A program made the translations under genes and the position numbers. From Theionarchaea archaeon (lineage in GTDB: Archaea; Methanobacteriota_B; Thermococci; Methanofastidiosales; SZ-28-30): DNA of 64,000 bases. Location: positions 1 to 64,000 of the forward strand of contig JACVGT010000019.1 of NCBI GenBank assembly GCA_018992685.1, written 5' to 3'. The notes under the pieces were generated by a model. That model saw only the letters and a program-made list of their open reading frames with translations. It was not told where the DNA came from and ran no database searches. Positions 39,339 through 58,178 of this stretch are shown in pieces; the stretch's first letter is position 1, and every line of letters starts with the position of its first letter.

Positions 39339-39342
39339 AATA

Positions 39343-40269: not shown

Positions 40270-40284
40270 GAAATCACCTTTAGA

Positions 40285-41268
40285 CTAAAACTCCACTCTT
40301 GGATCAAGCCATTTGTAGGAAATGTCAATCAAGACATTAGCCACTAGAATAAGAGTTCCAAGTACCACGGTAATCCCTACAATGACGAAATAGTCCCTGT
40401 GCTGAATTGCATACACAAAGTACTTCCCCAGGCCGGGCCATGAAAACACTGTCTCAGTAATAGGTGCTCCTCCCAGGGTAAGTGCAATCTGCATCCCTGT
40501 CACAGTTATCACTGGAAGCATTGCGTTTCTCAGTGCATGCTTGTAAATCACTATTCGTTCCTTGAGCCCCTTGGCCCTTGCTGTCATGATATAGTCTTCC
40601 CGCAGGACATTGAGCATTGAGGATCGGACCAACCGCGCATTGTATGCAGTCGATGCCAGACCCAGAGTCAATGTGGGCAGAGCCAGATGTTTCAGGTAAT
40701 CAAAGTAGTACGAAAAGTCATGGGGAATATCTTTTCCCAGAAACACCGTAGAATGGGCACCCCCACTGGGAAGCCATCCCAGTATCAGGGCAAATATGAA
40801 AATGTTCATCAACCCCAGGAAGAATATGGGGAACGAAACGCCCAGTAACGCCGCTGTCATGACCAGATTATCCGTCTTTGAATATTGTCTGACTGCAGAT
40901 ACAATTCCTGCTGGGATAGCAACACCTATCGAAAAGACAACGGCAAGCAGCTGGTATGATAGGGTGTTTACCACTCTGGCCCCGATTTCTTCGGAGACAT
41001 CTCTTCCAGATAGAAATGAAGATCCAAGATTAAAGGTTGCAAACTGTTTGAGCCAGTAAAAGTACTGGATATACCAAGGTTTATCCAGGCCGTAAATCGA
41101 TTTTATGTGTGCCACGTATGCAGGATCAGTGTCGGGCTGTAGTGCCAACATGAGATCAACAGCATCCCCTGGCATCAAGTACATTAGCATGAACACTATG
41201 AAAGAGATTCCCATGAGCATGGGAATAATCAGGATCACTCTTTTCAGGATATATTCTCTCATTCCCAT
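40285..41268 (-). CDS. oppB: Oligopeptide ABC permease
   Basis: PGD, GLDKP, DYIMTARAKG. Confidence 0.95.
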   Translation of the reverse strand: MGMREYILKRVILIIPMLMGISFIVFMLMYLMPGDAVDLMLALQPDTDPAYVAHIKSIYGLDKPWYIQYFYWLKQFATFNLGSSFLSGRDVSEEIGARVVNTLSYQLLAVVFSIGVAIPAGIVSAVRQYSKTDNLVMTAALLGVSFPIFFLGLMNIFIFALILGWLPSGGAHSTVFLGKDIPHDFSYYFDYLKHLALPTLTLGLASTAYNARLVRSSMLNVLREDYIMTARAKGLKERIVIYKHALRNAMLPVITVTGMQIALTLGGAPITETVFSWPGLGKYFVYAIQHRDYFVIVGITVVLGTLILVANVLIDISYKWLDPRVEF

Positions 41269-41348
41269 ATCGCACATCCTCCTTTGTTTTGTTTAGAGCA
41301 AGTCTCCTCATGTCGGGGCTGTTCTTTCTTGTCCTCAGTCATTTCAAC

Positions 41349-41384
41349 TCTCCCTCTTCAAAAAAGGGAAAAAGAGGGAAAAAA
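41349..41384 (-). terminator. Hairpin/U-rich element between SBP gene and oppB
   Basis: CCCTCTT...AAGAGGG inverted repeat with T runs on the minus strand. Confidence 0.5.
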
Positions 41385-41394
41385 TTTTGTTCTT

Positions 41395-43314: not shown

Positions 43315-43363
43315 ATCTTTTCTACCTCCTTTGATCGGTATTGTATCCACGTACAGGGAAAGG

Positions 43364-43379
43364 CTTATAAACCTTTCGG
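43364..43379 (-). promoter_or_regulatory. BRE-TATA of SBP paralog 1 / second opp operon
   Basis: CCGAAAGG-TTTATAAG on the minus strand. Confidence 0.75.
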
Positions 43380-43392
43380 TTTCAGTAGTATA

Positions 43393-43464
43393 TACTATCT
43401 TAAGTCGTAGCTAAAGCCAATAGTAGCATGCTACATTATATAATAGCTATTACCTTAAATAGTA
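43393..43464. promoter_or_regulatory. Two BlaI-type boxes upstream of the paralog 1 BRE
   Basis: TACTAT-CTTAA-GTCGTA (43393-43409) and TATTAC-CTTAA-ATAGTA (43448-43464). Confidence 0.65.
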
Positions 43465-43563
43465 AATTGAAGATTCTGGATTGGCTGCTTTTTACCTGGG
43501 CGGGCCGAACTCGGGCTTTTGCAGATAATCAAAAAAGAAACGCCGAAAAAATGAGAAACAAAG

Positions 43564-43752
43564 TCAGAATACGATGACAACTCCCATTTTCTCCAACAAG
43601 AAATATATACAGATCAGAAAGATAACAATCAGCCCCAAAATGAACAGCAGGGTGACTTTCTCTTTCGAATTCTTGTAATCTCTAGCGAAAATACCAATCA
43701 GTAGCACATCGCACACAATCGCTACCAGGAGTAGCAAAGCCTGTACATTCAT
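43564..43752 (-). CDS. Small 2-TM hypothetical protein
   Basis: AGGAGG SD; two hydrophobic helices. Confidence 0.6.
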   Translation of the reverse strand: MNVQALLLLVAIVCDVLLIGIFARDYKNSKEKVTLLFILGLIVIFLICIYFLLEKMGVVIVF

Positions 43753-43989
43753 CTAATTCCTCCTTTTCTAATCAGCATTTCGTAAGTTTTCAGATGTGGT
43801 GGTGTGTCCTCGTCACGTCGACATAAATACTTTTGGATAGGGTTCCTGTGTTACATAATCAAATCGTACTAATACATCATTTACAGCATAGTAGGAATTT
43901 TCTTACTATGCTGCAACTTCTATCTTGAAGAAATGATTATCATAAGAGGATTTCGTATGCTTTTCTTTCACTGCACTGCGTGTGCAATC

Positions 43990-44073
43990 ATCCATTGTCA
44001 AGCATAATTCTCCCTTTCTTACCAGCATCTTGTTATGTTCTTTCCAATTTCTGGTCATAAAACCATCTGGTTT
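43990..44073 (-). mobile_element. IS5-family remnant (84-bp near-copy of 45654-45737)
   Basis: Direct repeat with few mismatches encoding the transposase N-terminus. Confidence 0.8.
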
Positions 44074-44197
44074 TCTACAGTGACAATTCCTGGATGGACC
44101 ATCTCACAGAACAGGAAGAAGACTTTCCATTTGCGAGGAATTCAAGAAATTCTCTGGAAAAGCAAATCTTACTCTCCCTGTAGGACATCTCTCAGAG

Positions 44198-45133
44198 TCA
44201 GTACTGCCTTTCCAGTCTCATTATCTGTACAAAGTGCACGGCTACTAAAGTCAGTAGAGAAAGAACAAACACGATGAAAGTGTCAGAAATGATGTCATGT
44301 ATGTGGACAAAATTTGTGTCAATGCCTGTGTAGAGAATTTCGCCCGAGAAACTCGCTCTATCCAGTACGTGGAGGGTATCATTGAGGGCATACACGACTT
44401 CAGCGTCCATGATTGCTCCTGCAAAATCCTTCTGACTCTTGCGCACCTGGTAGTTATGATACGCTGTCTCCGCCATGAATATGTAGGACTCCGACAGGAC
44501 TTCACTATACGTATTTCTCAATGCGGCTTTCTCTGCATGATCTATAGTATTCTGGTAGCACTTGTCAAGAGGCAGTTCCTCCATAGTTTCAATAGAGGAG
44601 AACAATTCATTCAAGAATGCTTCATAGTGATCTGATTTCACAAAGTCGTCCCAGGAACTGGAATTTTCGCCACCATAATATTTCTGCAGTATTCTGCAGT
44701 ATTCTCCAGCATGACCTGAAATTCCTATTGCGTCAGGACCACAGGCCCACTTGTCACACACACGAAAATAGGCACCCAGAATCTTTGACTTGACCTCCAA
44801 TAGTGTACACTCACGAGCCTGCGTTCGGATTGTTCCACTGAAGAGTTTTTCTTCACTTTGAAGGTATTCGTGAAAATCCAGAAGATAGATGGAGTAGAGG
44901 GCACTTGTCTCTTTCTGGAAGTAATCAGAGAGCTCTTCTGGGTCATTTTTGTCAAGGGCTTCCCAATCTCTCTCTAGAATGTCTGAATTTTCTCTGACTA
45001 TCTCTTTCAGGTCAGATATGTTTTCTTCAATCTGTCCTTCGAATTGTTTCTGTCTATAGTAAGAGGTAGCCACCAGCCCTACAAGAAAAAGAACAATCCA
45101 AAGATAAATCAGCTCTTTTCGATTTTCTTTCAT
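44198..45133 (-). CDS. Hypothetical protein with N- and C-terminal TM helices
   Basis: 311-aa ORF; ATG 1 nt after the upstream stop. Confidence 0.65.
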   Translation of the reverse strand: MKENRKELIYLWIVLFLVGLVATSYYRQKQFEGQIEENISDLKEIVRENSDILERDWEALDKNDPEELSDYFQKETSALYSIYLLDFHEYLQSEEKLFSGTIRTQARECTLLEVKSKILGAYFRVCDKWACGPDAIGISGHAGEYCRILQKYYGGENSSSWDDFVKSDHYEAFLNELFSSIETMEELPLDKCYQNTIDHAEKAALRNTYSEVLSESYIFMAETAYHNYQVRKSQKDFAGAIMDAEVVYALNDTLHVLDRASFSGEILYTGIDTNFVHIHDIISDTFIVFVLSLLTLVAVHFVQIMRLERQY

Positions 45134-45134
45134 A

Positions 45135-45450
45135 TTAGAACGTCTTCCTCCATGCATCTTTAAATATGCCACGTATCAACGACTCTATGACTTCAGTACA
45201 CATGTCTTTCCATGCATCATTTCTGATGAAACTTTTGGTAATAGTCAAATAAGTCCGGTTCTCTTTTTGTGAAAGATAATCGCTTAGAGCATATCCCATA
45301 AGATATCCATTCCCCCAGTCTTTGGCCTCATCATCAGACATTTCAAGACTCCGTGTGAAGTTATAAGCCTCCTTATAGTCACGTAGTCGCGGTGTTTGCG
45401 AACCAAATGCTCCTAAAGTAACTGATGCTGGTTGGCTAAAATCAAAAAGA
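45135..45450 (-). pseudogene. 3' remnant of a gene truncated by the IS
   Basis: Open frame (...FGSQTPRLRDYKEAYNF...WRKTF*) runs up into the transposase fragment. Confidence 0.45.
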
Positions 45451-45806
45451 AATCCTACAGCAGAGACAGTCTGCTGAGGTAAGTCCCTCTGTATACTGCG
45501 ACAACTTTCTCAAAGTGCCTTTAACTGTCTATAGGACACGCTGAACACTGTCTTCGTCAGGGCAGTATATGCTATGAATTGAGGAAATGCAAAAGGGCTA
45601 CCTCGCTTGTTCACATTCATCTGCTGAAGTTCTTCATTCCAATATTCAATGAAATCCATTGTCAAGCATAATTCTCCCCTTCTTACCAGCATCTTGTTAT
45701 ATTCTTTCCAATTTCTGGCCATAAAACCATCTGGTTTCCCTATAGTATCCTTCTATTGGTTTATGCGTCAAACAAGGTATTTGAAGGCTAAATTGTACAA
45801 CACAGC
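45450..45806 (-). mobile_element. Truncated, frameshifted IS5-family (IS903-like) element, left end
   Basis: MARNWKEYNKMLVRRGE...SYRQLKAL then frameshifted RKLSQYTEGL..AD; terminal GCTGTGTTG resembles the IS903-group TIR. Confidence 0.75.
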
Positions 45807-45902
45807 AGATAGGGTTGAACAGCTAGAGTATGACCATCAGATTGGGGTAATCTTTATAAGGTATTGATAACCAACTCCCATGGTGATCTCATAAAACAGA
45901 TT

Positions 45903-46322
45903 ATGGCTCTACTGTGTTGCTTTCTGGTACTCGGCTGTACCATTGGTGTGAACCTTGATACACCTGAAAACACAGTGAACACATGGGTTCGATCGTACAA
46001 CGATCGGGATGTTGAGGGTATATATATAACACTGTCAAGAGCATACATCATGGCCAATGGCGGCGAGGAACGAGTGAAATCGATCATCGGGACCATGCTG
46101 GAAGAGGCTGAGGAATCAGAAATTTCGTTTACTGTGAAGGGGATTGGATTGCTTGCTTTGTCGACGGAACAGCCGGGATTGTCATCAGGCAGAACCATAT
46201 ATCTCGCGAGAATGGACAGGAAGTTTACAGAGGAAGGGGAGAAAAGAGTCGAAGAAGTCTTCTGGAATTTCGCTGTAGTAAAAGAAGACGACAAGTACAA
46301 GATCGAAGATTTCTGGGACTGA
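45903..46322 (+). CDS. Putative lipoprotein, NTF2/DUF4878-like
   Basis: LVLGC lipobox-like motif; TPE.TV......N..D; VKEDDKYKI. Confidence 0.6.
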   Translation: MALLCCFLVLGCTIGVNLDTPENTVNTWVRSYNDRDVEGIYITLSRAYIMANGGEERVKSIIGTMLEEAEESEISFTVKGIGLLALSTEQPGLSSGRTIYLARMDRKFTEEGEKRVEEVFWNFAVVKEDDKYKIEDFWD

Positions 46323-46439
46323 AAAGAGACGGATTTCTTATTCTTTTTGCACTTTCTTTCGCTGCCGTTATACGTCTCTACGCTTTCCACACATGGCCCA
46401 TATAGCATTTTAGGCAAGGCTGGTGCAGGAATGGTAAGC

Positions 46440-46797
46440 ACGCATTAGGATTGCTATGCAGGTTCTGGAACAGGAGGTGCCTCGTGGTGTTCACAGACAG
46501 AACGCACTCCTTGTGCTTCTAACAAGACTACCAGAATCCACAGAGAGTCATATTTCGCGTGAAGGAATGAAAATGTGAATTTGAACCCTCAGTTACCAGT
46601 ACTCTCTTTCTCAGGTTCTCTAACCTCATTGTTGAGTCAAATTCCCTAACAGCTTGCTTCTCCCGTTTGACGTCCTCTCACCACGGTGCCTTTCAGATTT
46701 CTGGTCACACTAGTCTGGGTTCTCCGTGTCTAATTTCCCGACCATTTTATGCTTCAAATAAGGTATTTGAATGAAAAATCGCGTAGTACACCACCAG
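46440..46797 (-). mobile_element. Highly decayed third IS5 left-end copy
   Basis: TTTATGCTTCAAATAAGGTATTTGAA matches the element at about 45760-45785; degenerate transposase-like codons follow. Confidence 0.45.
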
Positions 46798-46800
46798 AGC

Positions 46801-46834
46801 ACAAACCTTTAAAAGCTTACGACAACAGGTAGTA
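46801..46834 (+). promoter_or_regulatory. blaI promoter with autoregulatory box
   Basis: CTTTAAAA TATA then TACGAC-AACAG-GTAGTA (46818-46834), ending 3 nt before the ATG. Confidence 0.75.
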
Positions 46835-46837
46835 GTA

Positions 46838-47224
46838 ATGAATATCAAAAGACTTGGTCCTCTAGAACGAACAATAATGGAAGTCTTCTGGGAGAAGAAA
46901 AAAGCTGATGCACGGGAGGTCTATTCAGAACTCAACAGAGAAAAACAAATCGCCTACACCACCATCAATACTACTCTCACCCGTCTTCACAAGAAGAAAT
47001 TGCTCAACAGAAAGCTGGTGAAGGGAAGAGGAGGATACCGTTATGTGTACACCATTGCCAAGTCAAAACCAAAATACATTGATCAGGTCATACGCTCTAC
47101 CATAGATGATCTCCTGATGCGGTTCGGAAATCGAACCATAAGTTACTTCTCAGAAAGTCTCAACCTGAATGAAGAGGATGTGGAGAAGCTAAGAGTTCGT
47201 CTGAAGGAGTTGTCTCATGAATGA
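46838..47224 (+). CDS. BlaI/MecI/CopY-family repressor
   Basis: LGPLERTIMEVFW, AYTTINTTLTRL.KK.LL.R. Confidence 0.92.
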   Translation: MNIKRLGPLERTIMEVFWEKKKADAREVYSELNREKQIAYTTINTTLTRLHKKKLLNRKLVKGRGGYRYVYTIAKSKPKYIDQVIRSTIDDLLMRFGNRTISYFSESLNLNEEDVEKLRVRLKELSHE

Positions 47225-48554
47225 GTGGCAGAATTTTGCGCTTGCGATTGTATTGATTGTGGTGGTACAATTCACCAACGAGGGCATCATTGCGCTACTG
47301 AAAGTGAGGAATGCCACCACTCGATTCCGTATTAGGCTCATTTCTCTTGTCTCCTGTTTTTTCGTGTTTTTGATTGTTCCGTTCAAGATCGTGGAACTCA
47401 CCATCCTGTCGGGAGAGATTTTTGTCGGCAGCAGTGAATCTTCCCAGATTGATGGCTGGGTGGCCAGATCTGCCACAATGACGTCGACCTATTCTGGGTT
47501 TGCACGGGCCAGCGTTGTTCTCCTCTTGATAGCTGTGTGCTGCTTTGTTGTCATGGTTCTGTTCGGCAAGCACATAACTGGTAGAGTATTTGGATGTGAG
47601 CCAGCAACAGATTCGAGGCTTCTGACCATTGTGAATCAAGTCTCCTCTGAACTGGGACTGTCCATCAAGCAGGTGATGGTGTGCAGAAAGAAATGTGACG
47701 CCTTTGTATATGGATACCCTCCTTTCCTAGCAGTGGGAAGAGACCTCCTCACTATGCTGGATGACAGTGAGCTCCGGATAGTCATCAGGCATGAATTGTA
47801 CCATGTCAAAGGTAAGGACACACTCCTGAAGCCATTTCTTGCCGCTCTGTGCATTGTCTTCTTATACAACCCCATGAGCTGGTTCCTGTATAGAAAAGTG
47901 TTTAATGACAGGGAGTGCTGCGCTGATCAGGCTTCTATCACCTGTTCTCAGGACACCAGGACATTTCTTTCCCTGCTGCTGAAATTCCACAGCCTTGCAA
48001 GTGGCATGCCGCACACGTTTGCTGTTCACTGGACGGGAGCCACTAACAGAATTGACTCACTCCTCTTTGCAGAAAAGACCCGGAAGATCCCTGTCTTCTT
48101 GTGTTTGTTCTTTACGGTCTCATCGCTTTTTGTGGGAGGTACTCAGCTCTTTGAGAACCAATTTGTGGAAATCAACAGCTCTATTCCGTTTGATTCAGAA
48201 ACATATGGTCCGGAAGCTGATTTCTCAGACTATTTCTATGATATTCCTGTAGCAGAATGGTACAACAGAAAACGATCGGAAAATGAAGTGAGTATCCCAC
48301 TACAGGAAAGAGACCTCAGAAAACTCCTGTCTGCAGACGAACTTGCCAAGGGAGAAATCACCATAAGAATGGCCACGCTTCCCTTGGGAAGGAGACCTCA
48401 GTTGTTTGGCAGAAACGATATTGTGGATGGCAACTGTAACCTCATCATTGAAATAGAAGAGGGCAAACTATTCGTTTCCATAAGACAGAACAATGGACCT
48501 GGAACGTCCCAGAAGGAAGCCGTTCTCAGTGGAGGACCTGCCACAGCAATGTAG
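47217..48554 (+). CDS. M56-family (BlaR1-like) membrane zinc metalloprotease
   Basis: TM helices, HELYH..GKD, YNP..W, RECCAD; no recognisable penicillin-binding sensor domain. Confidence 0.88.
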   Translation: MNEWQNFALAIVLIVVVQFTNEGIIALLKVRNATTRFRIRLISLVSCFFVFLIVPFKIVELTILSGEIFVGSSESSQIDGWVARSATMTSTYSGFARASVVLLLIAVCCFVVMVLFGKHITGRVFGCEPATDSRLLTIVNQVSSELGLSIKQVMVCRKKCDAFVYGYPPFLAVGRDLLTMLDDSELRIVIRHELYHVKGKDTLLKPFLAALCIVFLYNPMSWFLYRKVFNDRECCADQASITCSQDTRTFLSLLLKFHSLASGMPHTFAVHWTGATNRIDSLLFAEKTRKIPVFLCLFFTVSSLFVGGTQLFENQFVEINSSIPFDSETYGPEADFSDYFYDIPVAEWYNRKRSENEVSIPLQERDLRKLLSADELAKGEITIRMATLPLGRRPQLFGRNDIVDGNCNLIIEIEEGKLFVSIRQNNGPGTSQKEAVLSGGPATAM

Positions 48555-48758
48555 GACTGTACTGAACGTGCAGGGAGAGTCACGGTATTCTAAAGGTATC
48601 CAGGGGTGTCTCGCACGCTCATGTGGCAATCCAGCACCTGGAATTTTCCTTGAATATATTGTTATATGTGTCCTCAGTCAGTCCCTGTGTGCCTAAGACC
48701 TGACGGTGGGACCTTCTCAATCAAAAAGCATTTATGTGGAATTATGTGAGAGACCACA

Positions 48759-50465
48759 ATGATCAGTGTTGAAGATCTCTCCTTTCAATACAGCACGGGT
48801 GAATCTCCGGTGCTAAGTAAAGTCACCCTGGTTGTTCCTCAGGGCGGCTACCTCGCGCTGGTTGGCCCTTCAGGTTCAGGAAAGAGTACTCTCTGTTTCA
48901 CCATGAATGGGATCATCCCCCATTCCATTACGGGTATTCTGTCGGGAAATGTTGTTGTTGACAGGTTGAATACGCGAGAACACCATGTGCACGAGCTTGC
49001 TGAAAAAGTGGGCATTGTTCTTCAGAATCCTGAATCCCAGCTCTTTGCCATGAGTGTGGAGGAAGAACTGGCTTTTGGTCCCGAGAATCTGGGTCTGCCC
49101 CGAGAAGAAATACTGGCCCGCATTGAGGACGTCCTAACCATTATTGGAATTGCAGACAGGGGGCGGTTTCCTTTCTCTCTATCGGGAGGAGAGAAACAGA
49201 AGCTTGCAATTGCTTCTATTCTGACCATGAACCCCTCTCACCTTGTGTTAGACGAACCAACCTCTCAACTGGATCCCCGGGGAAGAAAGAGTGTGTATGA
49301 TGTCCTGGACAAGCTTCACGCTGGCGGAATGTCCATCATACTCATTGAACATAATACAGAGCACATTGCAGAGCGTGCCCAGCAGGTGCTGGTGATAAAA
49401 GATGGCTCTGTCGTTGCCTCGGGATCGCCAAGAGATGTATTTTCTCAGGTGGAGACCATGAAAGCTCTGGGCATACAGGTTCCTGGGGTTGCTGAAGTCA
49501 CCTATGAGCTTCACAGGAGAGGCATCATACAAAGAATAGCTGTGACCCTCGAAGATGCGGTGTCACTGCTTGAAAATCTCAGACCCAAGGAATTCACTTC
49601 TCAGAGCCTGAAGACAGAATCAACCCTCACGAGAGTGGGGAGTTCTTCACCATCTTCACGTACGGAACCTGCTGTTGAGGTGAAGAATCTGTCCTTTCAG
49701 TACGGCGATGTCCCCGTCCTCAATAATGTTTCTCTCACTATTGGACACGGAGAGATTGTAGCAATCATTGGACAAAATGGATCTGGAAAGACAACGCTGG
49801 TCAAGCATTTCAATGGATTGCTGCGTCCGAAGGAAGGAGACATTTTCATCTTTGGAGAATCTGTTAAGGACAAGAGTGTTGCTCAATTAGCCCGGAAGGT
49901 AGGATATGTTTTTCAGAACCCAGATCATCAGATCTTTGCAGATAGTGTGTTCGAAGAAGTGGAATTCGGCCTCAAGAACCTTAGTGTCCCTCTGGAAGAG
50001 AGAGCAGAACGCGTGGCTGCGGTTCTGAAGCAGACTGACCTTTTCAGATATAAGGATACACACCCTACCAGCCTGTCGGGTGGGGAAAAACAGCGGCTGG
50101 TCATCGCGTCTGTCCTGGTAATGAACCCCCAGATTCTCGTCCTGGATGAACCAACGACTGGCCTGGATCTCAAGAGCTCTCGCTCAATAATCGACCTGGT
50201 CAGAGCCCTTCACCAGCAGCATCGCACTGTAATCCTGGTGACTCATGACATGAACCTGGTGGCAGAGATGGCACACCGTATACTCATTCTCAAAGACGGG
50301 ACCCTGGCTGCTGAAGGAAGCCCGCATCAGATCTTTTCAGATGAAGGCCTGCTCAGTGATAACTTCCTGGAAGCACCGCAGATCGCCAGACTCAGCAGTC
50401 GTCTGGGATATGGAACGTGTCTGAACATAGAAGAGTTTCTCCACAAACTGGAGGGTACCCTATGA
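48759..50465 (+). CDS. ecfA: ECF transporter ATPase with tandem ABC domains
   Basis: GPSGSGKST and GQNGSGKTT, QNP..Q, two LSGGEKQ. Confidence 0.93.
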   Translation: MISVEDLSFQYSTGESPVLSKVTLVVPQGGYLALVGPSGSGKSTLCFTMNGIIPHSITGILSGNVVVDRLNTREHHVHELAEKVGIVLQNPESQLFAMSVEEELAFGPENLGLPREEILARIEDVLTIIGIADRGRFPFSLSGGEKQKLAIASILTMNPSHLVLDEPTSQLDPRGRKSVYDVLDKLHAGGMSIILIEHNTEHIAERAQQVLVIKDGSVVASGSPRDVFSQVETMKALGIQVPGVAEVTYELHRRGIIQRIAVTLEDAVSLLENLRPKEFTSQSLKTESTLTRVGSSSPSSRTEPAVEVKNLSFQYGDVPVLNNVSLTIGHGEIVAIIGQNGSGKTTLVKHFNGLLRPKEGDIFIFGESVKDKSVAQLARKVGYVFQNPDHQIFADSVFEEVEFGLKNLSVPLEERAERVAAVLKQTDLFRYKDTHPTSLSGGEKQRLVIASVLVMNPQILVLDEPTTGLDLKSSRSIIDLVRALHQQHRTVILVTHDMNLVAEMAHRILILKDGTLAAEGSPHQIFSDEGLLSDNFLEAPQIARLSSRLGYGTCLNIEEFLHKLEGTL

Positions 50466-51253
50466 TTCAGCAGACCATGTTTATTCGAAAAGAATCCTTT
50501 CTTCACTCTTTGGATCCCAGAACAAAGCTATTCTTATCCATTGGCCTGTTTCTCGTGGGTGTCCTGTTCACTGATTACAGAGTGCTGATGGCCCTCTTTG
50601 CAGGCGAGGTTATCATTCTCAGAGTGGCAGCCAGAATTCCTTTTTCGAAGTTATTCCCGTACCTGAAACTGATTCTTCCTCTTGTGGTTATGGCACTGCT
50701 GATATGGCCCCTCTTCCAGAGAACGGGGACAGTTCTGGTATCCTACTGGAAGGTTATCATCACGAAGGAGGGAATCCAGATGGGAATTGCCATGTCCTTG
50801 AGACTGCTGTCTTTGATCGTGGCTACGTATTTGCTCCTCATGACCACCGAGCAGAGAGATCTGGTTCTTGCTCTCGTTAAATCCGGATTGCGGTATGATT
50901 TCGGGTTAATGTTGGCCATTGCTCTGAGCAAGGTTCCTGCTCTGGCAGGGATTGCCTTGACCATCATGGATGCGCAGAAGGCACGAGGGCTCGAACTCGA
51001 AAAGGGAAATATCGTTGAAAAAGTGAGAAAGTACATACCTATTCTGATTCCATTGATTATTTCAGCTATAAGGCTGGCTGAAGCGTTGTCCATTGCAATT
51101 GATTCTCGAGCATTTGGGAGAGGGAGGCGCACCTACCTGAGAGAGCTTCACTTCACGATGAAAGATGCGCTGGTCACTGGTATGGCTGTGGTGGTGATTT
51201 CAGTATGTATGGGAATGCGTGCTGCAGGATATGGTGTTATGGAATTGCCGTGA
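50462..51253 (+). CDS. ecfT: ECF transporter T component
   Basis: LDPRTKL, AQKARG, DSRAF. Confidence 0.93.
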   Translation: MIQQTMFIRKESFLHSLDPRTKLFLSIGLFLVGVLFTDYRVLMALFAGEVIILRVAARIPFSKLFPYLKLILPLVVMALLIWPLFQRTGTVLVSYWKVIITKEGIQMGIAMSLRLLSLIVATYLLLMTTEQRDLVLALVKSGLRYDFGLMLAIALSKVPALAGIALTIMDAQKARGLELEKGNIVEKVRKYIPILIPLIISAIRLAEALSIAIDSRAFGRGRRTYLRELHFTMKDALVTGMAVVVISVCMGMRAAGYGVMELP

Positions 51254-52059
51254 TGGCTGTCGGAACCGTATTGATGTCGGCTGCACTGGAAAACCCGGTG
51301 GAGGGGTGGGCTGTCCTCATGGAAACCAATGATTTCCCTGGAGGGTACACTGATCTCCCTCTGGGCTTCGTGGATGTTGAACGAATGGAGACCCTGCTCC
51401 AGTACCACGGGTGGCAGAAATCACACATGCTACTAAGAAGAGATACTATTACGACGCAAGCAGTGAAGGAGGGTATTGCATACCTGCAGAAAGCAGATCA
51501 GAATGACATTGCTTTGTTCTACATTTGCTCTCACGGAGGATATCTGAGGCATGATCTCCAATGGAACAGTCTCATGCCTCCGCTCTGGGAGCGTGTTACC
51601 AGTGAAAAGAGAGTATTGATTATAGATTCCTGCTATGCAGGTTCCTTTCTGCCGGAAAGCGAGAGACCATACATCGGGATTGGCTCAGTTTCGGCTGACG
51701 AGCTTGGGTGGGCAGGCCTGCCAGAAGAGAACCTGCCTATTACCGGGTTCGTGTTCACCTACTACTTCTGCCAGTCCACCCTGGGAGTATCAGTTGAAGA
51801 GGGATTTGGAAGGGCCAGTCCCCAGGTACAGCAGTACATGCAGGATGTGGTCTATCCGGCTTTCAAGGAAGTCTATCCTCCCGAGCACTACAATGTCTAT
51901 GATCCTCATCCTGTGTTGAAGGATTCGTATCCAGGTGAGCTCTCCCTGTGGGTTGATGAGGGTGGAGTTTCTCTCTCTCAGGTTCTGGCTGTCCTGATGC
52001 TTCTCCTCCTGGGAATCATCCTTGCCCTGGATAGAAAAGGAATCTGTTCATGTGACTAG
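51250..52059 (+). CDS. Caspase/metacaspase-like (clan CD) peptidase with C-terminal TM
   Basis: FYICSHG and IIDSCYAG His-Cys dyad; start position uncertain. Confidence 0.8.
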   Translation: MMAVGTVLMSAALENPVEGWAVLMETNDFPGGYTDLPLGFVDVERMETLLQYHGWQKSHMLLRRDTITTQAVKEGIAYLQKADQNDIALFYICSHGGYLRHDLQWNSLMPPLWERVTSEKRVLIIDSCYAGSFLPESERPYIGIGSVSADELGWAGLPEENLPITGFVFTYYFCQSTLGVSVEEGFGRASPQVQQYMQDVVYPAFKEVYPPEHYNVYDPHPVLKDSYPGELSLWVDEGGVSLSQVLAVLMLLLLGIILALDRKGICSCD

Positions 52060-52166
52060 GAAATGTGTAATGAAAGGGACGCTATACGGGGAAGTGAAGG
52101 TTTTCATCCTTTGTTCCTCTGCGTGCCGGCCAAAAGCTTTATATTTCAACAGAAGCAATCTCTCCT

Positions 52167-53210
52167 GTGGAATCGACAACTGATATTCTGGAGAAACTCA
52201 TAGAAGAAGAACAGAGAATAAGGCAGAAAGCAGAAGAACTGGGACTCCATGTCGGAAAAGAGTCACTAGAAGAGGCTAAGAAGCCCTTCAGGGCCAAAGA
52301 AGGAATTCCCAGGACAGAACTCACTGAACGAGAGATGTCTCGGCTGCTGGCCGAAACGAGGGATATTCTTGACATCTACAGCTTGGATTATGTTTCTGAG
52401 CATTTTGATGAGGCTAAGAATCTGTATTACGCGCTGAAGGACAAACCCTTCTCGCCTGATTCTCTCATTGGATCACGAATCGTGCAGAATATCCAGGAGT
52501 TGAAGGAACGAATCGATGCAGTGGAAGAACAGGAATCTCCAACAAAACCACTGGAAGAACTGCTTTCTGATTCGAAGAGGCTTCTTGATTCTCTGGATTC
52601 ACTTGACGCAGTTCAGGCGAAACGGCGCTATGCTGATCTGCTGAAGAGACAGCAGGATGCGCCCAAGAATGTGGATCAGCCACTTGAAGTAGAAATCGAC
52701 GAGTACCTGCTGGAAATTGGGAAACGAATTCAGCGAACAGAAAAAAAGACATCTGAAGAAATTGGAGAAGAGCTTCTGGAAGAAATCAGCACGTTGATTG
52801 GATCCAAGAGTTTTGATCCTGAAGGATACAACAGGATTGCCAGAAAATTCCAGGAAATAGCAGATGATCTTCCTGAAGATCTCAAAGTGAAAATAAGAGA
52901 CCGCATACGCGAGTCCTTTGCCAAGATGAAGGATCTCGAACAAAAGGAACACGTTGAAGAACGAATACGGGAAGAACGTGCCAAGAAGTTCTACTGGGAT
53001 TCATTCGCTCAGGAGGTGGAACAACTGAAGGCCGATCTGGAGCGAGCAACACCTGGAGAGTTTTTCAGGCTCTACGATATCTACAATCAATTGCTGGACT
53101 CACTGGAACACGCAGATCTATCAGATGTTCATGCTGCCCAGATTGAGCGGGTAAAATCAATGATAGATCAGTGTTACTACATGCTGGAAGAACTCAGATC
53201 ACGAGCATGA
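52167..53210 (+). CDS. Hypothetical acidic all-helical protein
   Basis: Long E/K/L-rich ORF; TATA about 25 nt upstream. Confidence 0.7.
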   Translation: MESTTDILEKLIEEEQRIRQKAEELGLHVGKESLEEAKKPFRAKEGIPRTELTEREMSRLLAETRDILDIYSLDYVSEHFDEAKNLYYALKDKPFSPDSLIGSRIVQNIQELKERIDAVEEQESPTKPLEELLSDSKRLLDSLDSLDAVQAKRRYADLLKRQQDAPKNVDQPLEVEIDEYLLEIGKRIQRTEKKTSEEIGEELLEEISTLIGSKSFDPEGYNRIARKFQEIADDLPEDLKVKIRDRIRESFAKMKDLEQKEHVEERIREERAKKFYWDSFAQEVEQLKADLERATPGEFFRLYDIYNQLLDSLEHADLSDVHAAQIERVKSMIDQCYYMLEELRSRA

Positions 53211-53214
53211 TACC

Positions 53215-53997
53215 CTATTTGGGGAGTCGTCCCAGTTCCACCACTCCTTTGGAAACAATGCGCTGTACCGTTGTTCTGGATCCGATCTTCAGGCTGCCAT
53301 CACACATGACTTTCTGAAGAACGCTGTCAGATCCCACGTAGATATCTCCTTTACAGTATACATCTTCTTTTACTTCACAGAAATTCCCTATTTCCAGCTG
53401 GACTTCTATGTTCACCGGCGAATTCATAATATTTCTGTCTCCAAGAGATGCATCCTTACCTTTTATAGAACCCTTGAACTCACACTCGGCTTTGCTCTTC
53501 ACCGTTGAAGCCACCACATCCCCATACACCATATTTTTGCTACCAAGGTGGACTTCTTCTCCTGCTTCAATATTCCCTTTTATAATGACTCCATCTCCGA
53601 GGTGGATGCTGCGGCTGGTTTTCAGCCCTCCTGTAAGAACCAGATCATCAGAGAGGCTAATGTCTGAGTCTCTGGCCACAATGGCAAAGGTTTTCAGGGA
53701 AATCTCATCCTTTTTCTGCTGTATTACCTGTTGAAGTTCGGATATTTCAAGATTCTTTTCTTCAATAATCTGTTTCAGCTGGCGTTCAGTTTCTGCAAAA
53801 TTTTCCACCTTGTCCAGGAGAGCCTGGTTATCCTCAGTCAGCCTTTCGGCTACCTCTCGTAACTTGGACACTCCGCCGTATTCCTTCCTGTAGGTTTCCA
53901 ACTCCCTGGTGATACGGGAGTTTTCGTCCCGCAATTCGGTGGCCATCCGTCTTAGAGATTCTATAACCTCATCTTTTCCTTTGTCAAAGAGCCCCAT
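53215..53997 (-). CDS. Coiled-coil + bactofilin-like beta-helix protein
   Basis: N-terminal heptads; repeated IKGNIEAGEEVHLG / VYGDVVA strands. Confidence 0.7.
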   Translation of the reverse strand: MGLFDKGKDEVIESLRRMATELRDENSRITRELETYRKEYGGVSKLREVAERLTEDNQALLDKVENFAETERQLKQIIEEKNLEISELQQVIQQKKDEISLKTFAIVARDSDISLSDDLVLTGGLKTSRSIHLGDGVIIKGNIEAGEEVHLGSKNMVYGDVVASTVKSKAECEFKGSIKGKDASLGDRNIMNSPVNIEVQLEIGNFCEVKEDVYCKGDIYVGSDSVLQKVMCDGSLKIGSRTTVQRIVSKGVVELGRLPK

Positions 53998-54157
53998 GCT
54001 GTTCAACCTCCATTCTTTTTTTCTACAGCATATATATAGCTTTTTCCATTGCCATTGCCGGACTGGTGAAGACCACATCCATTGTCAAGTCAGGCTCTGT
54101 TCTTCATACGTGGCTGAGCAGAAAAGTCGTTTTCTTTCGCCAATGCGAAAATAAAGT

Positions 54158-54619
54158 TCACATTGAGGATTTTCTCTCAGTCAGCTCGAACAAGCAGTAG
54201 CTATCTCCGGCAGCCTGACAGGAGGTCTCCCTGTACATGATGTCTTCTTTACTGTAATATCTGGAAACCAGCCCCTCGAAAAACCCAGCCAGAAAATGAC
54301 ACACGGGGTCATTACTTTCCGCATAGCCAGAAGCAATCGGAGAATCAGTAACCTGGAACTGAAATTCTTCAGGATGAAAGGTAGCCCTCACAAAGCCAGT
54401 GGCTTCCAGCTCGGCCAAAAGATCCTGGATGGTGGCGCCTTCATCTTCTGATTGCATGATTTCCATGTACTTGTCGCCAAATTCCTTTCCTGCAGAGTAG
54501 AGAACTTTGGCCGCAGAGGGCCCAATGGAATCCTCCAGCGTTTTCTGGATTTTCATGAAAATGCTGTTAAGCACCACTAGCTTCCTCTTTTTTTCCACCG
54601 GCAGCAATTCTTTCATCAT
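54158..54619 (-). CDS. V4R-domain protein
   Basis: LY.AGKEFG, PVCHFLAGFFEG, ETSC.AAGD.YC.F. Confidence 0.9.
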   Translation of the reverse strand: MMKELLPVEKKRKLVVLNSIFMKIQKTLEDSIGPSAAKVLYSAGKEFGDKYMEIMQSEDEGATIQDLLAELEATGFVRATFHPEEFQFQVTDSPIASGYAESNDPVCHFLAGFFEGLVSRYYSKEDIMYRETSCQAAGDSYCLFELTERKSSM

Positions 54620-54742
54620 ATATCCTTTCAATCAGGACTTTATAAAGGTATAGGAGGCGAGCAAAGAGGTAGTAGACCTGCCTTCTTGCTGACATTTCAA
54701 GATCTGCTGCTCCGGTGTCTGCCATCACGCTGAGGAGCCACA

Positions 54743-55537
54743 CTACGAGCCAAACCAGGCATCTAGCCTCCTCTGCCCAGGCTGGGCCTTCCTGTACGGG
54801 ATGTTCAGAAGGTCCTTCAACATTCGTGCGTTGCTGATTGCCTGCCCTCGGGGGTGATTATTGAACTGGAGATACAAAGTCTCGGTTGAGAGACGTATTT
54901 CTTGCACTTTGGGTACCCACTCCTTCAATTCTTCTTCTGAGTATTGATAGTCATACCAATGCGATGGGTTCCTTCCATGCCATCTAACATATCCAAGATC
55001 TGATGTGATTCGTACGAGAGGTTCCATTTTCACAGAATCTGTCACAACAAAGGCGGCGTGGTCATCTCTGAGAAAGGAAACGTCAATTCTCGAGTCCCAG
55101 GAGGTGTGGCGGAACTCTACCGCAAACCGCACATTGTCAGGTAGAAAGTCCAAGAACTCCTTCAGGTTATCTTCATACTCTGTAGAGAACTTTGGAGGCA
55201 ATTGAATGAGGAAACAGCCCAGCTTTCCTGAATCTATGAGAGGAAACATCAAAGAATAGAATTCCTTGAACACCGGTTCTGAATTCTTGAGAAATCTCTT
55301 GTGAGTAATCTCTTTGGGGATCTTTGCGGTGAAGACAAAATCATCAGGTACCTTCTTGTTCCAGGAAATGACCGCGTACTTATTGGGTAGGGCATAGAAA
55401 GTGGAGTTAATCTCTACCAGATTGAATTCCCTTGCATAAAACTCTAACATCTTTCCCTTCTCAATGCCTTCAGGGTAAAACGGGCCAATCCAATCATCAT
55501 AGCTCCAGCCACTCGTTCCTATGTATAAGGTTCCCAT
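54743..55537 (-). CDS. DUF72 (YecE-like) protein
   Basis: IGTSGWSY, VEINSTFY, QLPP, EFRH, R.HG. Confidence 0.93.
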   Translation of the reverse strand: MGTLYIGTSGWSYDDWIGPFYPEGIEKGKMLEFYAREFNLVEINSTFYALPNKYAVISWNKKVPDDFVFTAKIPKEITHKRFLKNSEPVFKEFYSLMFPLIDSGKLGCFLIQLPPKFSTEYEDNLKEFLDFLPDNVRFAVEFRHTSWDSRIDVSFLRDDHAAFVVTDSVKMEPLVRITSDLGYVRWHGRNPSHWYDYQYSEEELKEWVPKVQEIRLSTETLYLQFNNHPRGQAISNARMLKDLLNIPYRKAQPGQRRLDAWFGS

Positions 55538-55720
55538 AGTAGGAGTTCTTCTGATACCAAAAAAATGTTACGGTTCCTGTGCTGTAATGAGCCCCTGTGA
55601 TACTTCTGCTCCTGTTCTGCTGAGCCCCCATATCGATGCAAGGCCTCACATCACACATCTTTTGTTCCCACATCGAAGGGACGTACTTCCAGCATCCGAG
55701 CTCAATCATCCACGTGTCAA

Positions 55721-55779
55721 CCGAAAGTCTTATAAGTAGTAGTTATTATAATAACAAGTAGCTACTACTAAAAGTAGTA
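55721..55779 (+). promoter_or_regulatory. BRE-TATA and perfect BlaI-type box of SBP paralog 2
   Basis: CCGAAAGT-CTTATAAG; TACTAC-TAAAA-GTAGTA at 55763-55779. Confidence 0.75.
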
Positions 55780-55799
55780 TCTACTACGGAAAATCGGAA

Positions 55800-55903
55800 C
55801 TCCAATACCGTCTGCTGGTTGAAGATGTCGGCCTCCTTGGATCGGTATTGCAGACACTGAACCCGATCAACATCACCTCCAGCAGATGGTATACAGAATG
55901 GAG
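55800..55903 (+). ncRNA. Structured 5' leader (long hairpin exposing CCUCCUU)
   Basis: 55805-55818 pairs with 55879-55892 (14 bp, 1 GU); inner GATGT/ACATC and GATCGG/CCGATC. Confidence 0.65.
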
Positions 55904-55921
55904 ACCAAAGGAGGAAGAAAA

Positions 55922-57811
55922 ATGAACACAAGAAAGATCTCAGTCGTATTGTCTGCCGTGTTACTTGCTTCTTTAACTCTATCCCTATTCGGAACCAGTA
56001 CTGTTGCACAAGAACAGCAGTGGAAAAAAGTGCCAACTACTGAAGACTATTCCAATTACCCCGCATTCTTTTCGATCACGCAGATTGCCCCCATTGGGAA
56101 CAAGGTTAGGGAACAGTATACACAGGCAGCCAACCTCGAAATGAGAAAAATCGGCATAGGGGCTGACTTCAGAATGCTGGAGTTCGGAGACCTGATCAAC
56201 AGGGAATTCAACAACTACTATGGCAGCACATTTGCTGAAGATGGATTCGACATTTCTTCATTCGGCTGGTCAGTGGGAGTAGACCCCGATCCCTTTGACA
56301 GTTTCCACTCTTCTGCAATGACCCCCATAGGTAACAACATTACATTCTGGTACTGCCCGGAAGCTGATGAGATGCTCTCTCTCGCACGAGTTGAACTTGA
56401 CCAGCAAGCCAGAAAGGAATACCTGTGGAGATTCCAGGAGATTGTTGCGGATGAAAAGCCCTACTGTGTGGTGTATGTGCCACTGCTCATCTGGGCCTCC
56501 ACAGATCAACTGGAAGGCTTTAATTCACTGATGTGGCAGCAGAACTTTGATGCTGTAACCTGGTCAATTCCAGGAAAAGACACCGTTGTCTATGGTACAC
56601 CCGCAGCTGTCGAGGGTATGCTGCCCTGGAGATGGAACTCAGTGTATGGACACTATCTTCACAACCAGATATTTGAGACATTGTGGACCGTTGCTCCAGA
56701 CCTCACCATTGAATCAAGAATTGCTGACTCTGCAACAGAAGGACCTTCAATCGTATTTGCCCCTAGCACTCTTGATGATGCTTCAATTGAGGCTCTCGGA
56801 CCTGATGTCAAGAAGTGTGTGGTGAACACCAAACTCGCAGGTCCTGTTGTGTTCCCCGAATACTACGACATCAAAATCAAAGAAGGCATCATGTTCCACG
56901 ATGGCGTGGAGATGACCAGTGAAGATGTCAAGTGGTCAATGGATGCCTGTGTCAGCGCAGACACCGCCTTCCAGGGATGGGGTACCTTCAGAGATGTATA
57001 TTCCAGCTCAGAAATCCTTGACAAGTACACACTGAGAGTGTATGTCGGGATGCCCCACGCAGCATGGGTACAGTATTGTAATCCATATGTATTGCCCAAG
57101 CATATCTATGGTGGCATTCCTATAACAGGAGCAGAAGCTGCCACCAGCTGGATGGAATCTGACATCAACAGAGGAGACACTGTCATTGGTTCAGGACCCT
57201 TCATGTTTGATTCCTGGGAAGCTGACCAGTTCTGGAAGATGAAGAAGACACCTGACTACTGGGGTTCTGCATATGGATATCTTGAAGCAGGATGCGACTT
57301 CCTGATACTGAAATTGATACCCGAGAGAGAGGCAGCCCGTGTTGCCCTGGAAACTGGAGAAATTGACATCATGTGCTGCTACTACCAGCTCGGAGCAATT
57401 GCTCAGGACCTGGAAGCTACCCCCGGCCTAGTGTTGTGGACCACAGAAGACTTCGGCTACCAGCACCTGCACTTCAACTGCCGCAACCCGTACCTTGCCA
57501 ACAAGTACGTGAGACAGGCCATTTCCTCCTGTATTGACAGACAGGGAATTGTGGACAAGTTGCTGGGTGGTTATGGTGTGCCTGGTGCCAACCCTGTTGC
57601 CGTTCCCTCGTGGGCCTTCAACACCAACATTGCACCAGACCCATACGATCTGGACAAGGCACGAGAGTTGATGGACACGGCAGGATATCGCTACTACGTC
57701 CTAGAAAAGACGGTGAGCACAGGCGGAGAAGAGGAAGCTGGAGGCGGATTCTGTCTGGGAACCCTGTTTATAGCCCTTATGAAGACTAATCATCTATTCA
57801 GGAGAGAGTGA
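55922..57811 (+). CDS. oppA: Family 5 SBP paralog 2 (circularly permuted, orphan, degenerate anchor)
   Basis: Close paralog of 41395-43314; ends CLGTLFIALMKTNHLFRRE. Confidence 0.9.
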   Translation: MNTRKISVVLSAVLLASLTLSLFGTSTVAQEQQWKKVPTTEDYSNYPAFFSITQIAPIGNKVREQYTQAANLEMRKIGIGADFRMLEFGDLINREFNNYYGSTFAEDGFDISSFGWSVGVDPDPFDSFHSSAMTPIGNNITFWYCPEADEMLSLARVELDQQARKEYLWRFQEIVADEKPYCVVYVPLLIWASTDQLEGFNSLMWQQNFDAVTWSIPGKDTVVYGTPAAVEGMLPWRWNSVYGHYLHNQIFETLWTVAPDLTIESRIADSATEGPSIVFAPSTLDDASIEALGPDVKKCVVNTKLAGPVVFPEYYDIKIKEGIMFHDGVEMTSEDVKWSMDACVSADTAFQGWGTFRDVYSSSEILDKYTLRVYVGMPHAAWVQYCNPYVLPKHIYGGIPITGAEAATSWMESDINRGDTVIGSGPFMFDSWEADQFWKMKKTPDYWGSAYGYLEAGCDFLILKLIPEREAARVALETGEIDIMCCYYQLGAIAQDLEATPGLVLWTTEDFGYQHLHFNCRNPYLANKYVRQAISSCIDRQGIVDKLLGGYGVPGANPVAVPSWAFNTNIAPDPYDLDKARELMDTAGYRYYVLEKTVSTGGEEEAGGGFCLGTLFIALMKTNHLFRRE

Positions 57812-57988
57812 CACTATTTGAAATCTCCTGATTGAGCCAAAAATCCCATAAAGATTTTATCCTTCAACCTAAGAACTCAACCTGTCAACATTTCTTATCC
57901 AGTATTACCAATAGTGTCATGACATATGCACCTTTCATCCCACTACCATAGCAGCAAGTAGCTCCGGGAGAAAGAACATTAATTCCAA

Positions 57989-58048
57989 GCGAAAGTTTTA
58001 TAAAGCACAGTAACTACTAAATTCAAGTAGTTACTATTTTAAATAGTA
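57989..58048 (+). promoter_or_regulatory. BRE-TATA and BlaI-type box of SBP paralog 3
   Basis: GCGAAAGT-TTTATAAA; TACTAT-TTTAA-ATAGTA at 58032-58048. Confidence 0.75.
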
Positions 58049-58064
58049 TCTACAACTGAGACAA

Positions 58065-58153
58065 TCCCGGACCGTTCACTGGATGAAGATGTCACCTCCT
58101 TTGATCGGTACTCTACATTCGATCCGACATCTCATCTGGTGGATGGTGCGGGA
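58065..58153 (+). ncRNA. Structured 5' leader homologous to 55800-55903
   Basis: 58071-58093 pairs with 58126-58147, with compensatory/GU changes relative to the paralog 2 leader. Confidence 0.65.
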
Positions 58154-58178
58154 AATGGAGACTAAAGGAGGATAAAAA

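Follow-up and report, generated by a model that had tools for sequence, protein, structure and literature searches.

Orphan solute-binding protein genes of an uncultured archaeon with 5' leaders complementary to the ribosome-binding site of an operon-linked paralog: possible masking in trans

Three paralogous genes for solute-binding proteins at one locus

The stretch of DNA analysed here (the window, 64 kb, positions 1 to 64,000 of contig JACVGT010000019.1) is part of a Theionarchaea-like metagenome-assembled genome (MAG) of an uncultured marine-sediment archaeon, which comprises 3.03 Mb in 45 contigs with a GC content of 46.7%. It carries three paralogous genes encoding solute-binding proteins (SBPs), designated p1, p2 and p3, of which p1 heads a transporter operon and the other two stand alone. 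The subject of this work is a short stretch in the 5' leaders of p2 and p3 that is antisense to the ribosome-binding site of p1, and through which the orphan leaders may act on p1 in trans. The genes concerned are the following.

41395-43314, minus strand: paralog 1 (p1), family-5 solute-binding protein of 639 amino acids (aa), ATG at 43314; Pfam SBP_bac_5, E 7.7e-60
37393-41277, minus strand: remainder of the p1 operon, downstream of p1, with permease genes at 40285-41277 and 39343-40269 and ATPase genes at 38358-39338 and 37393-38391, assigned by domain matches
55922-57811, plus strand: paralog 2 (p2), orphan SBP of 629 aa; SBP_bac_5, E 1.5e-56
58179-60080, plus strand: paralog 3 (p3), orphan SBP of 633 aa; SBP_bac_5, E 1.1e-60

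A tblastn search of the genome rendered these three close copies of the family-5 SBP gene only, and their proteins share 76-82% mutual identity (76% between p1 and p3, 80% between p1 and p2). The presence of SBP_bac_5 domains and of permease and ATPase genes beside p1 identifies them as family-5 SBPs of an Opp/Dpp-type importer. The first gene of the corresponding ATP-binding cassette (ABC) operon is p1, and the domains BPD_transp_1 (twice), OppC_N, and ABC_tran with oligo_HPY (twice) are encoded downstream of p1 only. No transporter gene follows either p2 or p3, the gene after p3 being an MscS-like one on the opposite strand.

A stretch of the orphan leaders is antisense to the p1 leader

A first-pass annotation of the window had reported that the p3 leader at 58094-58110 (ACCTCCTTTGATCGGTA) is identical to the plus strand at 43324-43340, and that the p2 leader carries a near-copy at 55832-55850 (CCTCCTTgGATCGGTATTG). 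Comparison of the sequences rendered the same result, with 17 of 17 identical positions for p3 and 18 of 19 (against 43325-43343) for p2. Since p1 is transcribed from the minus strand and p2 and p3 from the plus strand, the shared plus-strand stretch is antisense to the p1 leader (CAAUACCGAUCAAAGGAGGU), and it is indeed complementary, as had been claimed, to a part of that leader that includes the Shine-Dalgarno (SD) sequence AAAGGAGGU, the target lying at -29 to -10 from the ATG. The elements involved in this match, including transcription factor B recognition elements (BRE), TATA boxes and predicted hairpins with their minimum free energies (MFE), are listed below.

43324-43343, minus strand: proposed target, the p1 5' leader CAAUACCGAUCAAAGGAGGU, with the SD at 43324-43332 and 11 nt between it and the predicted start
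43364-43379, minus strand: p1 BRE CCGAAAGG and then TTTATAAG (TATA at 43371-43364)
55722-55736, plus strand: p2 BRE/TATA CGAAAGTCTTATAAG, about 185 nt 5' of the ATG
55800-55903, plus strand: p2 leader hairpin, predicted fold, MFE -41.7 kcal/mol, z -3.29, 1 of 200 shuffles as good
55832-55850, plus strand: p2 antisense stretch CCUCCUUgGAUCGGUAUUG, 18 of its 19 positions being complementary to the p1 leader, within RNA contig 55833-56204 save for its first base
55907-55914, plus strand: SD of p2 itself, AAAGGAGG, unpaired in the MFE fold
57990-58005, plus strand: p3 BRE/TATA CGAAAGTTTTATAAAG, about 185 nt 5' of the ATG
58065-58153, plus strand: p3 leader hairpin, predicted fold, MFE -47.7 kcal/mol, z -4.57, 0 of 200 shuffles as good
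58094-58110, plus strand: p3 antisense stretch ACCUCCUUUGAUCGGUA, complementary to the p1 leader at 17 of 17 positions, of which 58094-58102 form an unpaired internal loop
58164-58171, plus strand: SD of p3 itself, AAAGGAGG

The match was evaluated against the window and against the whole genome. With up to 2 mismatches, a 16-mer of the stretch was found at 3 sites in the window, a number that was reached in none of 100 shuffled sequences (0/100 with at least 3 sites), and at 7 sites in the 3.03-Mb genome. Three of these seven are the leaders of p1, p2 and p3; the other four, which have 1-2 mismatches, include three within open frames of at least 100 codons and one with a broken CCTCC core. 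When the genome outside the p3 locus was searched for perfect complements to the p3 loop region, the p1 site came out longest with 17 nt; the next one measures 15 nt and lies in an open frame of contig C8, on its non-coding strand. A seeded genome-wide RNAduplex scan ranked the p1 site first for p3, with a lead of only 1.6 kcal/mol. Because RNAduplex energies discriminate poorly here when internal loops are free, contiguous pairing was taken as the criterion. As would be expected of a riboregulator, the complementarity to the target SD extends beyond chance and is unique in the genome (17/17 in p3, 18/19 in p2, and 20/20 in G001b, the ortholog of p3 in the sister species G001 that is treated below). 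The match between the orphan leaders and the p1 leader is real and not due to chance.

A promoter layout of the form CGAAA-N3-TTATAAR, comprising BRE and TATA, is common to p1, p2, p3 and the orthologous promoters of outgroup genomes. In Thermococcus kodakarensis the distance from TATA to transcription start has a median of 23 bp according to the promoter data of PMC4247193, and application of this spacing to the p1 TATA box (TTTATAAG) predicts a start at about -27 +/- 2. It had been noted that the match ends about where p1 transcription should begin, and the sequence prediction agrees with this, since the sole BRE/TATA of p1 places the start at the edge of the match. A start downstream of the complementary stretch is thus not indicated; the p1 5' end lies outside the RNA contigs listed. 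In p2 and p3, the position of BRE/TATA and the same median spacing imply leaders of about 150-160 nt.

A palindrome, AGTA-N2-TACT, also occurs in the three promoters. Its copies are the following.

43387-43396: one copy, p1
55757-55766 and 55776-55785: two copies, p2
58009-58018 and 58026-58035: two copies, p3

The genome contains 40 copies of this palindrome, of which five are in the three SBP promoters, and clustered pairs are found only at p2 and p3. GTAGCATGCTAC is present as well, at 43423-43434, and similar GTAGTA boxes appear in the outgroup promoters. Relative to TATA, the palindrome is on the upstream side in p1 and on the downstream side in p2 and p3. It is probably a shared operator, and the opposite placement around TATA means that one factor might drive the two types of promoter in opposite directions.

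Predicted folding of the orphan leaders

From its base upwards, the predicted p3 hairpin has stems of 5, 16 and 6 bp, then an internal loop of 9 nt, and above this an inner stem of 6 bp that ends in a 10-nt apical loop. The first-pass annotation had described CCUCCUU as unpaired, like a toehold, and GAUCGG as held in a weak stem. This is what the predicted fold contains: ACCUCCUUU is unpaired in the 9-nt internal loop in both MFE and centroid structures, GAUCGG lies within the 6-bp inner stem, and the remainder of the antisense stretch forms the apical loop. The predicted cost of opening ACCUCCUUU is 0.02 kcal/mol in p3, 1.2 in p2 and 0.03 in G001b, so that an accessible seed, as needed by a riboregulator, is present in the predicted structures.

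Several observations speak for the hairpin. When the 22 pairs of the outer stem were compared in p3, G001b and p2, 92.4% of the cells were paired, versus 24-50% when the partner strand was slid, and three of the pairs change on both sides, that is, they are compensatory. The hairpins of p3 and G001b differ at 8 positions: three are in the apical loop, two make up one compensatory change from A-U to G-C, one breaks a pair beside a bulge and two are in a basal bulge. Over promoter and leader together, about 18 of 200 columns differ between these two orthologs (hand count), whereas by eye only about half of the next 200 positions upstream are identical. For p3, folding of the opposite strand gives -33.0 kcal/mol, 14.7 worse than the sense strand, because the sense fold makes use of G-U pairs.

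This strand asymmetry bears on the idea that a regulator binds the 20-mer at all three loci as double-stranded DNA. The three copies are direct repeats on the chromosome, in the same plus-strand reading, and each has a TATA box upstream of it, so that a protein bound there could stand in the way of transcription. The G-U pairs and the dependence of folding on the strand point, however, to a feature of the RNA. Moreover, no dyad symmetry was found in our own check of the 20-mer, in which only the central GATC is palindromic; the distance to the promoter differs, being about +1 to +20 in p1 versus about +65 to +85 in the orphans; and the AGTA-N2-TACT palindromes are better operator candidates at all three promoters. 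We consider a DNA site very improbable.

It can also be the case, though we think it improbable, that the hairpin has some other role, as a 5' stabiliser, a processing signal or a protein site, with a CCUCC loop that binds SDs in general or nothing at all, the extended match to p1 then being incidental. The scaffold shows conservation and covariation, and no match at the gathering score was rendered by Rfam 15 in the 64-kb window; in the region 55700-58250, Rfam returned only two microRNA models at chance level (E about 3). In addition, AAAGGAGGT occurs 78 times in the genome, so that the 9-nt loop alone is unspecific. What such a role would leave unexplained are the 11 further complementary positions, for which simple arithmetic gives a chance of about 1 in 4 million, and the retention of these positions in three orphan lineages. 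An identity as C/D-box RNA or K-turn was discarded, as neither conserved C/D boxes nor tandem G-A pairs were seen by eye. A small open reading frame (ORF) on the opposite strand, using the reverse-complement SD, was also discarded, since inspection by eye of p2, p3 and the third orphan of G001 (G001c) revealed no start codon at a usable distance.

Some additional features of these leaders may be recorded. The 5' arm of the p2 hairpin opens with CAATACCG (55803-55810), a sequence identical to the p1 target over the first 8 nt of the latter and complementary to the tail of p2's own 19-mer. A second CACCUCC is found in the 3' arm of p2 (55874-55880) and is missing from p3. A start of the form ATGGAGAC... 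lies 24 nt upstream of, and in frame with, the main ORF in p2 (55898-55921) and in G001b (about 2983-3006 of locus L018); in p3 it is closed by TAA (58155-58175) and in G001c it is absent. A conserved GGAGAC stands directly before the SD. Regarding the resemblance of ACCUCCUUU to the 3' end of 16S rRNA, no such end was found in the MAG, its five matches to GGATCACCTCC being unlike a 16S end by eye.

Pairing in cis and in trans

A C-rich segment upstream of an SD could act within its own leader, and sequestering of the orphan SD in cis was therefore considered. The possible pairing of the stretch with its own SD is short, as had been stated in the first-pass annotation (7-9 nt), amounting to 8 pairs in p3 and to 7 contiguous ones in p2 (10/12). 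Nor is the own SD preferred: a fold in which the anti-SD is made to pair with it in nested fashion has an MFE higher by 16.0 kcal/mol for p3 and by 10.0 kcal/mol for p2. In all predicted MFE folds the own SD is free, these being nested structures only, with pseudoknotted contacts outside the computation, and it is not paired in any favoured or competitive fold. A tertiary contact appears sterically unlikely, since the own SD is only about 4-10 nt from the base of the hairpin and the loop is about 28 bp up the stem. In addition, the hairpin is complete before the own SD is transcribed.

The duplex with p1 has a predicted energy of -31.4 kcal/mol for p3 and -31.5 for p2. Net energies were calculated as the duplex energy plus opening costs, RNAcofold being unable to model pairing of a loop with a strand. 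After both opening costs they are about -22.8 (p3), -21.3 (p2), -25.3 (G001b) and -15.9 kcal/mol (G001c). Pairing with p1 would open only the inner stem of the orphan hairpin and leave the own SD untouched, so that any effect should run from the orphan to p1.

The main rival to an action in trans is that the match is the relic of a cis switch. According to this explanation, the hairpin controls only the translation or stability of the orphan gene itself, by conditional refolding, a helicase or a bound protein, and has no function in trans; the p1 leader would descend from an ancestral leader whose 5' arm and SD segment both complemented the middle segment. In p2, CAATACCG pairs with the tail of its own 19-mer and GACCAAAGGAGG pairs with the head at 10 of 12 positions, and a hand alignment of the SD-proximal 20 nt of p2 and p1 rendered 14 of 20 positions alike. 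Long structured 5' untranslated regions (UTRs) are, furthermore, common on transporter mRNAs of Thermococcus, as far as the transcript data of PMC4247193 describe them. On the other side, the nested cis pairing costs the 10-16 kcal/mol given above and leaves the SD free in every predicted fold. Taking this together with the comparison of related genomes that follows, we judge a cis-switch relic unlikely, albeit less so than the two alternatives discussed above.

The leaders in related genomes

A survey of 41 related genomes (E <= 1e-50) found the SBP in 5 of the 41, and wider contig surveys rendered 14 genome loci (6 of them close and archaeal) and 21 metagenome loci (of which only L031 is close). 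Multiple copies are present in the sister species G001 only, which has three. G001a is the ortholog of p1; its leader is identical to that of p1 and it is followed by a permease gene. G001b is the ortholog of p3; its stretch matches the p1-type leader throughout (20/20). The remaining copy, G001c, is a third orphan and has a gene for a major facilitator superfamily (MFS) transporter after it. The stems of G001c cannot be aligned with those of p2 and p3, yet the architecture is the same (-46.8 kcal/mol, z -3.57) and ACCUCCUUUGGUCGCUAUUG is kept at 18 of 20 positions, one of the two changes giving a G-U pair with p1 and the other a C-C opposition. Thus the hairpin is found in 4 of 4 orphan genes of two species, and the target in both operon-linked orthologs of the genus. 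Conservation of the stretch in relatives, whose absence the first-pass annotation had named as grounds for abandoning its proposal, was observed in the one other species that has these genes (G001).

On the target side, 32 nt around the site (TGGATACAATACCGATCAAAGGAGGTAGAAAA) are identical between p1 and G001a, whereas the adjoining upstream spacer differs at 4 of 14 positions. If the match were a cis-switch relic, the 11-nt part of the p1 leader beyond the SD would be unconstrained and should have drifted while the orphan stems diverged beyond alignment. Similarly, contiguous pairing with the own SD has decayed to 8 pairs in p3, 8 in G001b and 5 in G001c, while the match of the loop to p1 holds at 17-20 positions; in G001c the own SD has changed to AAGUGGAGG, with no matching change in the loop. 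What speaks for the relic is that the entire orphan leader is conserved between the species, beyond the 20-mer, and that the conserved core exceeds the part complementary to p1.

Hairpin and CAATACCGATC are both absent from the outgroup leaders of G004 (L020), G003 (L022) and G016 (L021) and of metagenome contig L031. A permease gene comes after L020 and L022, which are hence operon-linked; L021 and L031 end at contig ends. When 34 genomes of the order were searched with a degenerate pattern, SBP leaders with the motif were seen in the present genome (G000) and G001 only, and the 12 other near-matches from the genome and order searches comprised 11 within open frames of at least 100 codons and one with a broken core. 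In G002, of the same genus and 84% complete, no such SBP gene was found with the query used. The L020 leader of G004 contains GCCUCC about 35 nt before the SD, complementary to its own GGAGGC and buried in a different predicted hairpin; an older cis anti-SD is a possible explanation of it, and it was left out of the count of hairpin-bearing leaders.

Transcripts from the locus

Two metatranscriptome runs of one study rendered contigs over the coding regions of p1, p2 and p3. One of these RNA contigs (X11) begins at 55833, the second base of the p2 stretch, and ends within the coding region at 56204, so that the anti-SD part of the p2 leader is present in RNA. Carry-over of DNA is low, given that RNA depth is zero in the bins between 43193 and 46347 in spite of their being covered by the DNA runs. 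The locus occurs in 15 DNA runs of 6 studies. Contigs cannot show where transcripts start, and RNA depth was not used for ranking the paralogs. Initiation of the orphan transcripts downstream of the hairpin, which the first-pass annotation had held up as incompatible with its proposal, is not indicated, in view of the conserved BRE/TATA about 150 nt upstream and of the RNA cover of p2 from 55833 on. Both p1 and p3 are transcribed in the same bulk samples, which is neutral with respect to silencing at the level of translation. Between 41300 and 60200, contig cover in the two RNA runs is limited to the three SBP genes and a few neighbours, and the presence of several variant contigs there suggests co-occurring strains.

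Possible masking of the p1 ribosome-binding site in trans

Our likeliest interpretation, which we advance tentatively, is that the orphan leaders mask the p1 ribosome-binding site in trans. The leaders of p2 and p3, of about 150 nt, and those of G001b and G001c in the sister species, would act as antisense RNAs on the p1 mRNA. Each leader would fold during transcription into the long hairpin, with ACCUCCUUU, which resembles the 3' end of 16S rRNA, open in the internal loop. This loop would nucleate on the p1 SD (AAAGGAGGU), after which the weak GAUCGG inner stem and the apical loop would join the pairing, giving a duplex of 17-20 bp that extends over the p1 leader from roughly the first base up to and including the SD and excludes ribosomes from p1. 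Given that the first permease gene after p1 has an SD of its own (AAAGGAGG), blocking of p1 need not block the permeases directly; they would escape, and the binding protein that serves the permease would shift.

The first-pass annotation had put forward cross-silencing in this sense, with a swap of the binding protein used by a shared permease. Its anatomical part stands: the stretch is exposed on a hairpin, unique in the genome, conserved and not matched to the own SD. The data gathered here lend no support to its functional part, namely the duplex in cells, the drop in p1 and the exchange of binding protein. We infer that a duplex could form in cells, that p1 translation could be lowered and that the binding protein at the permease could be shifted. 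A more extended version is that of a paralog-switching circuit made of mRNA only, in which the 5' leaders of the orphans shut off p1 translation, the permeases stay translatable and the AGTA-N2-TACT operators reinforce the effect; this we regard as rather doubtful, if somewhat more plausible than a cis-switch relic.

Several points weigh against masking in trans. The leaders are those of mRNAs, and would have to be abundant enough to titrate p1. Among the RNA contig pieces listed, none extends over the p1 5' end or the p3 hairpin. In the RNAduplex scan several genome sites are within 2-4 kcal/mol of p1 for p3, and p1 is outside the top 14 for p2, the competitors of p1 depending on long internal loops. 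In the p2 leader, each half of the stretch has a partner in cis, namely CAATACCG (55803-55810) and GACCAAAGGAGG (55903-55914), so that an ancestral cis switch could have created the match to p1. The block conserved among the orphan leaders reaches about 10 nt 5' of the antisense stretch (GAAGAUGUC and GAGGAUCUC) and is thus longer than the part complementary to p1; a part of the conservation may therefore serve the hairpin itself. At the other end, p3 and G001b differ at 2 of the last 3 positions of the 20-mer, which indicates that this end is not tightly held. Finally, there is no covariation between the partners. With two close species and identical p1 leaders, conservation could reflect recent ancestry, and for this reason a cis-switch relic stays a live rival.

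Other features of the region

At their C-termini, p1 has a plain hydrophobic anchor followed by KKK (41395-41500), while p2 and p3 share a different tail, EEAGGGxCLGTxFIAL, so that anchoring or processing may differ between p1 and the orphans. Right after the p1 stop and ahead of the first permease gene, the minus strand at 41355-41394 contains T-runs and a CCCTCTT...AAGAGGG inverted repeat, a putative partial terminator that may set the ratio of SBP to permease. The region between p1 and p2 encodes a BlaI-like repressor and a BlaR1/M56 peptidase (46838-48554), as well as a double ABC ATPase with a CbiQ-type component of the energy-coupling factor (ECF) class (48759-51253).

Comparison with known systems

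Repression of SBP mRNAs by pairing at the SD has a bacterial counterpart in GcvB of enterobacteria, which pairs at the SD or shortly before it with mRNAs for peptide-transporter binding proteins (oppA/dppA type) and so represses them post-transcriptionally. This RNA stands alone, depends on Hfq and acts on many targets by imperfect pairing through a G/U-rich region, in contrast to the near-perfect match of 17-20 nt to one target described here. The display of an anti-SD loop on a hairpin is found in the C-rich-loop small RNAs (sRNAs) of Firmicutes (RNAIII, RsaE, RoxS), which seed on SDs; these are dedicated bacterial sRNAs with short seeds and many targets. In RNA thermometers and translational riboswitches, a CCUCC-type stretch upstream of the SD sequesters the SD of the same leader. 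The orphan leaders are unlike such cis elements in that, according to the predicted folds, their own SD is free and the anti-SD is on a separate hairpin.

Closer in kind is sRNA162 of Methanosarcina mazei, an archaeal RNA that, in the account given in PMC3510493, masks an mRNA's predicted ribosome-binding site and uncouples expression within the transcript. Pairing in trans through a single-stranded region onto an mRNA ribosome-binding site is common to both cases (PMC3510493). sRNA162, however, is encoded by a separate sRNA gene and, according to the same account, was established by gel shifts and genetics, whereas here the putative regulator is the 5' leader of a coding mRNA, its target is a paralog, its seed is an internal loop, and it is known from sequence and predicted folds (PMC3510493). 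The hly and prsA2 mRNAs of Listeria monocytogenes likewise provide a case, as reported in PMC8722363, of a full-length mRNA that regulates another by UTR pairing. That case is bacterial, joins a 3' UTR to a 5' UTR of a non-paralog and stabilises the target against RNase J1, while here a 5' UTR would block an SD (PMC8722363). In the L31/L31p pair of Escherichia coli, when one paralog is expressed, the other is repressed in its translation by way of the 5' UTR of the target, as would be the case here; the repressor there, in the description of PMC9825181, is the paralogous protein bound to an RNA hairpin, and not an RNA-RNA duplex.

Few regulatory RNA-mRNA pairs with experimental support are available in archaea, and the roles of long 5' UTRs are largely untested, in the picture given by PMC4247193. 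A search of a collection of open-access papers rendered no case of an archaeal coding-mRNA 5' UTR that acts in trans on a paralog, and the paralog-switching circuit, if real, would be the first. If the interpretation favoured here is true, it would mean that an archaeal coding mRNA can at the same time be an antisense regulator of its paralog. Duplicated SBP genes could then compete in a simple manner for one permease, with neither a dedicated sRNA gene nor a chaperone being involved. The interacting pair is, in addition, small and sharply defined, consisting of a 90-nt hairpin and a 28-nt leader.

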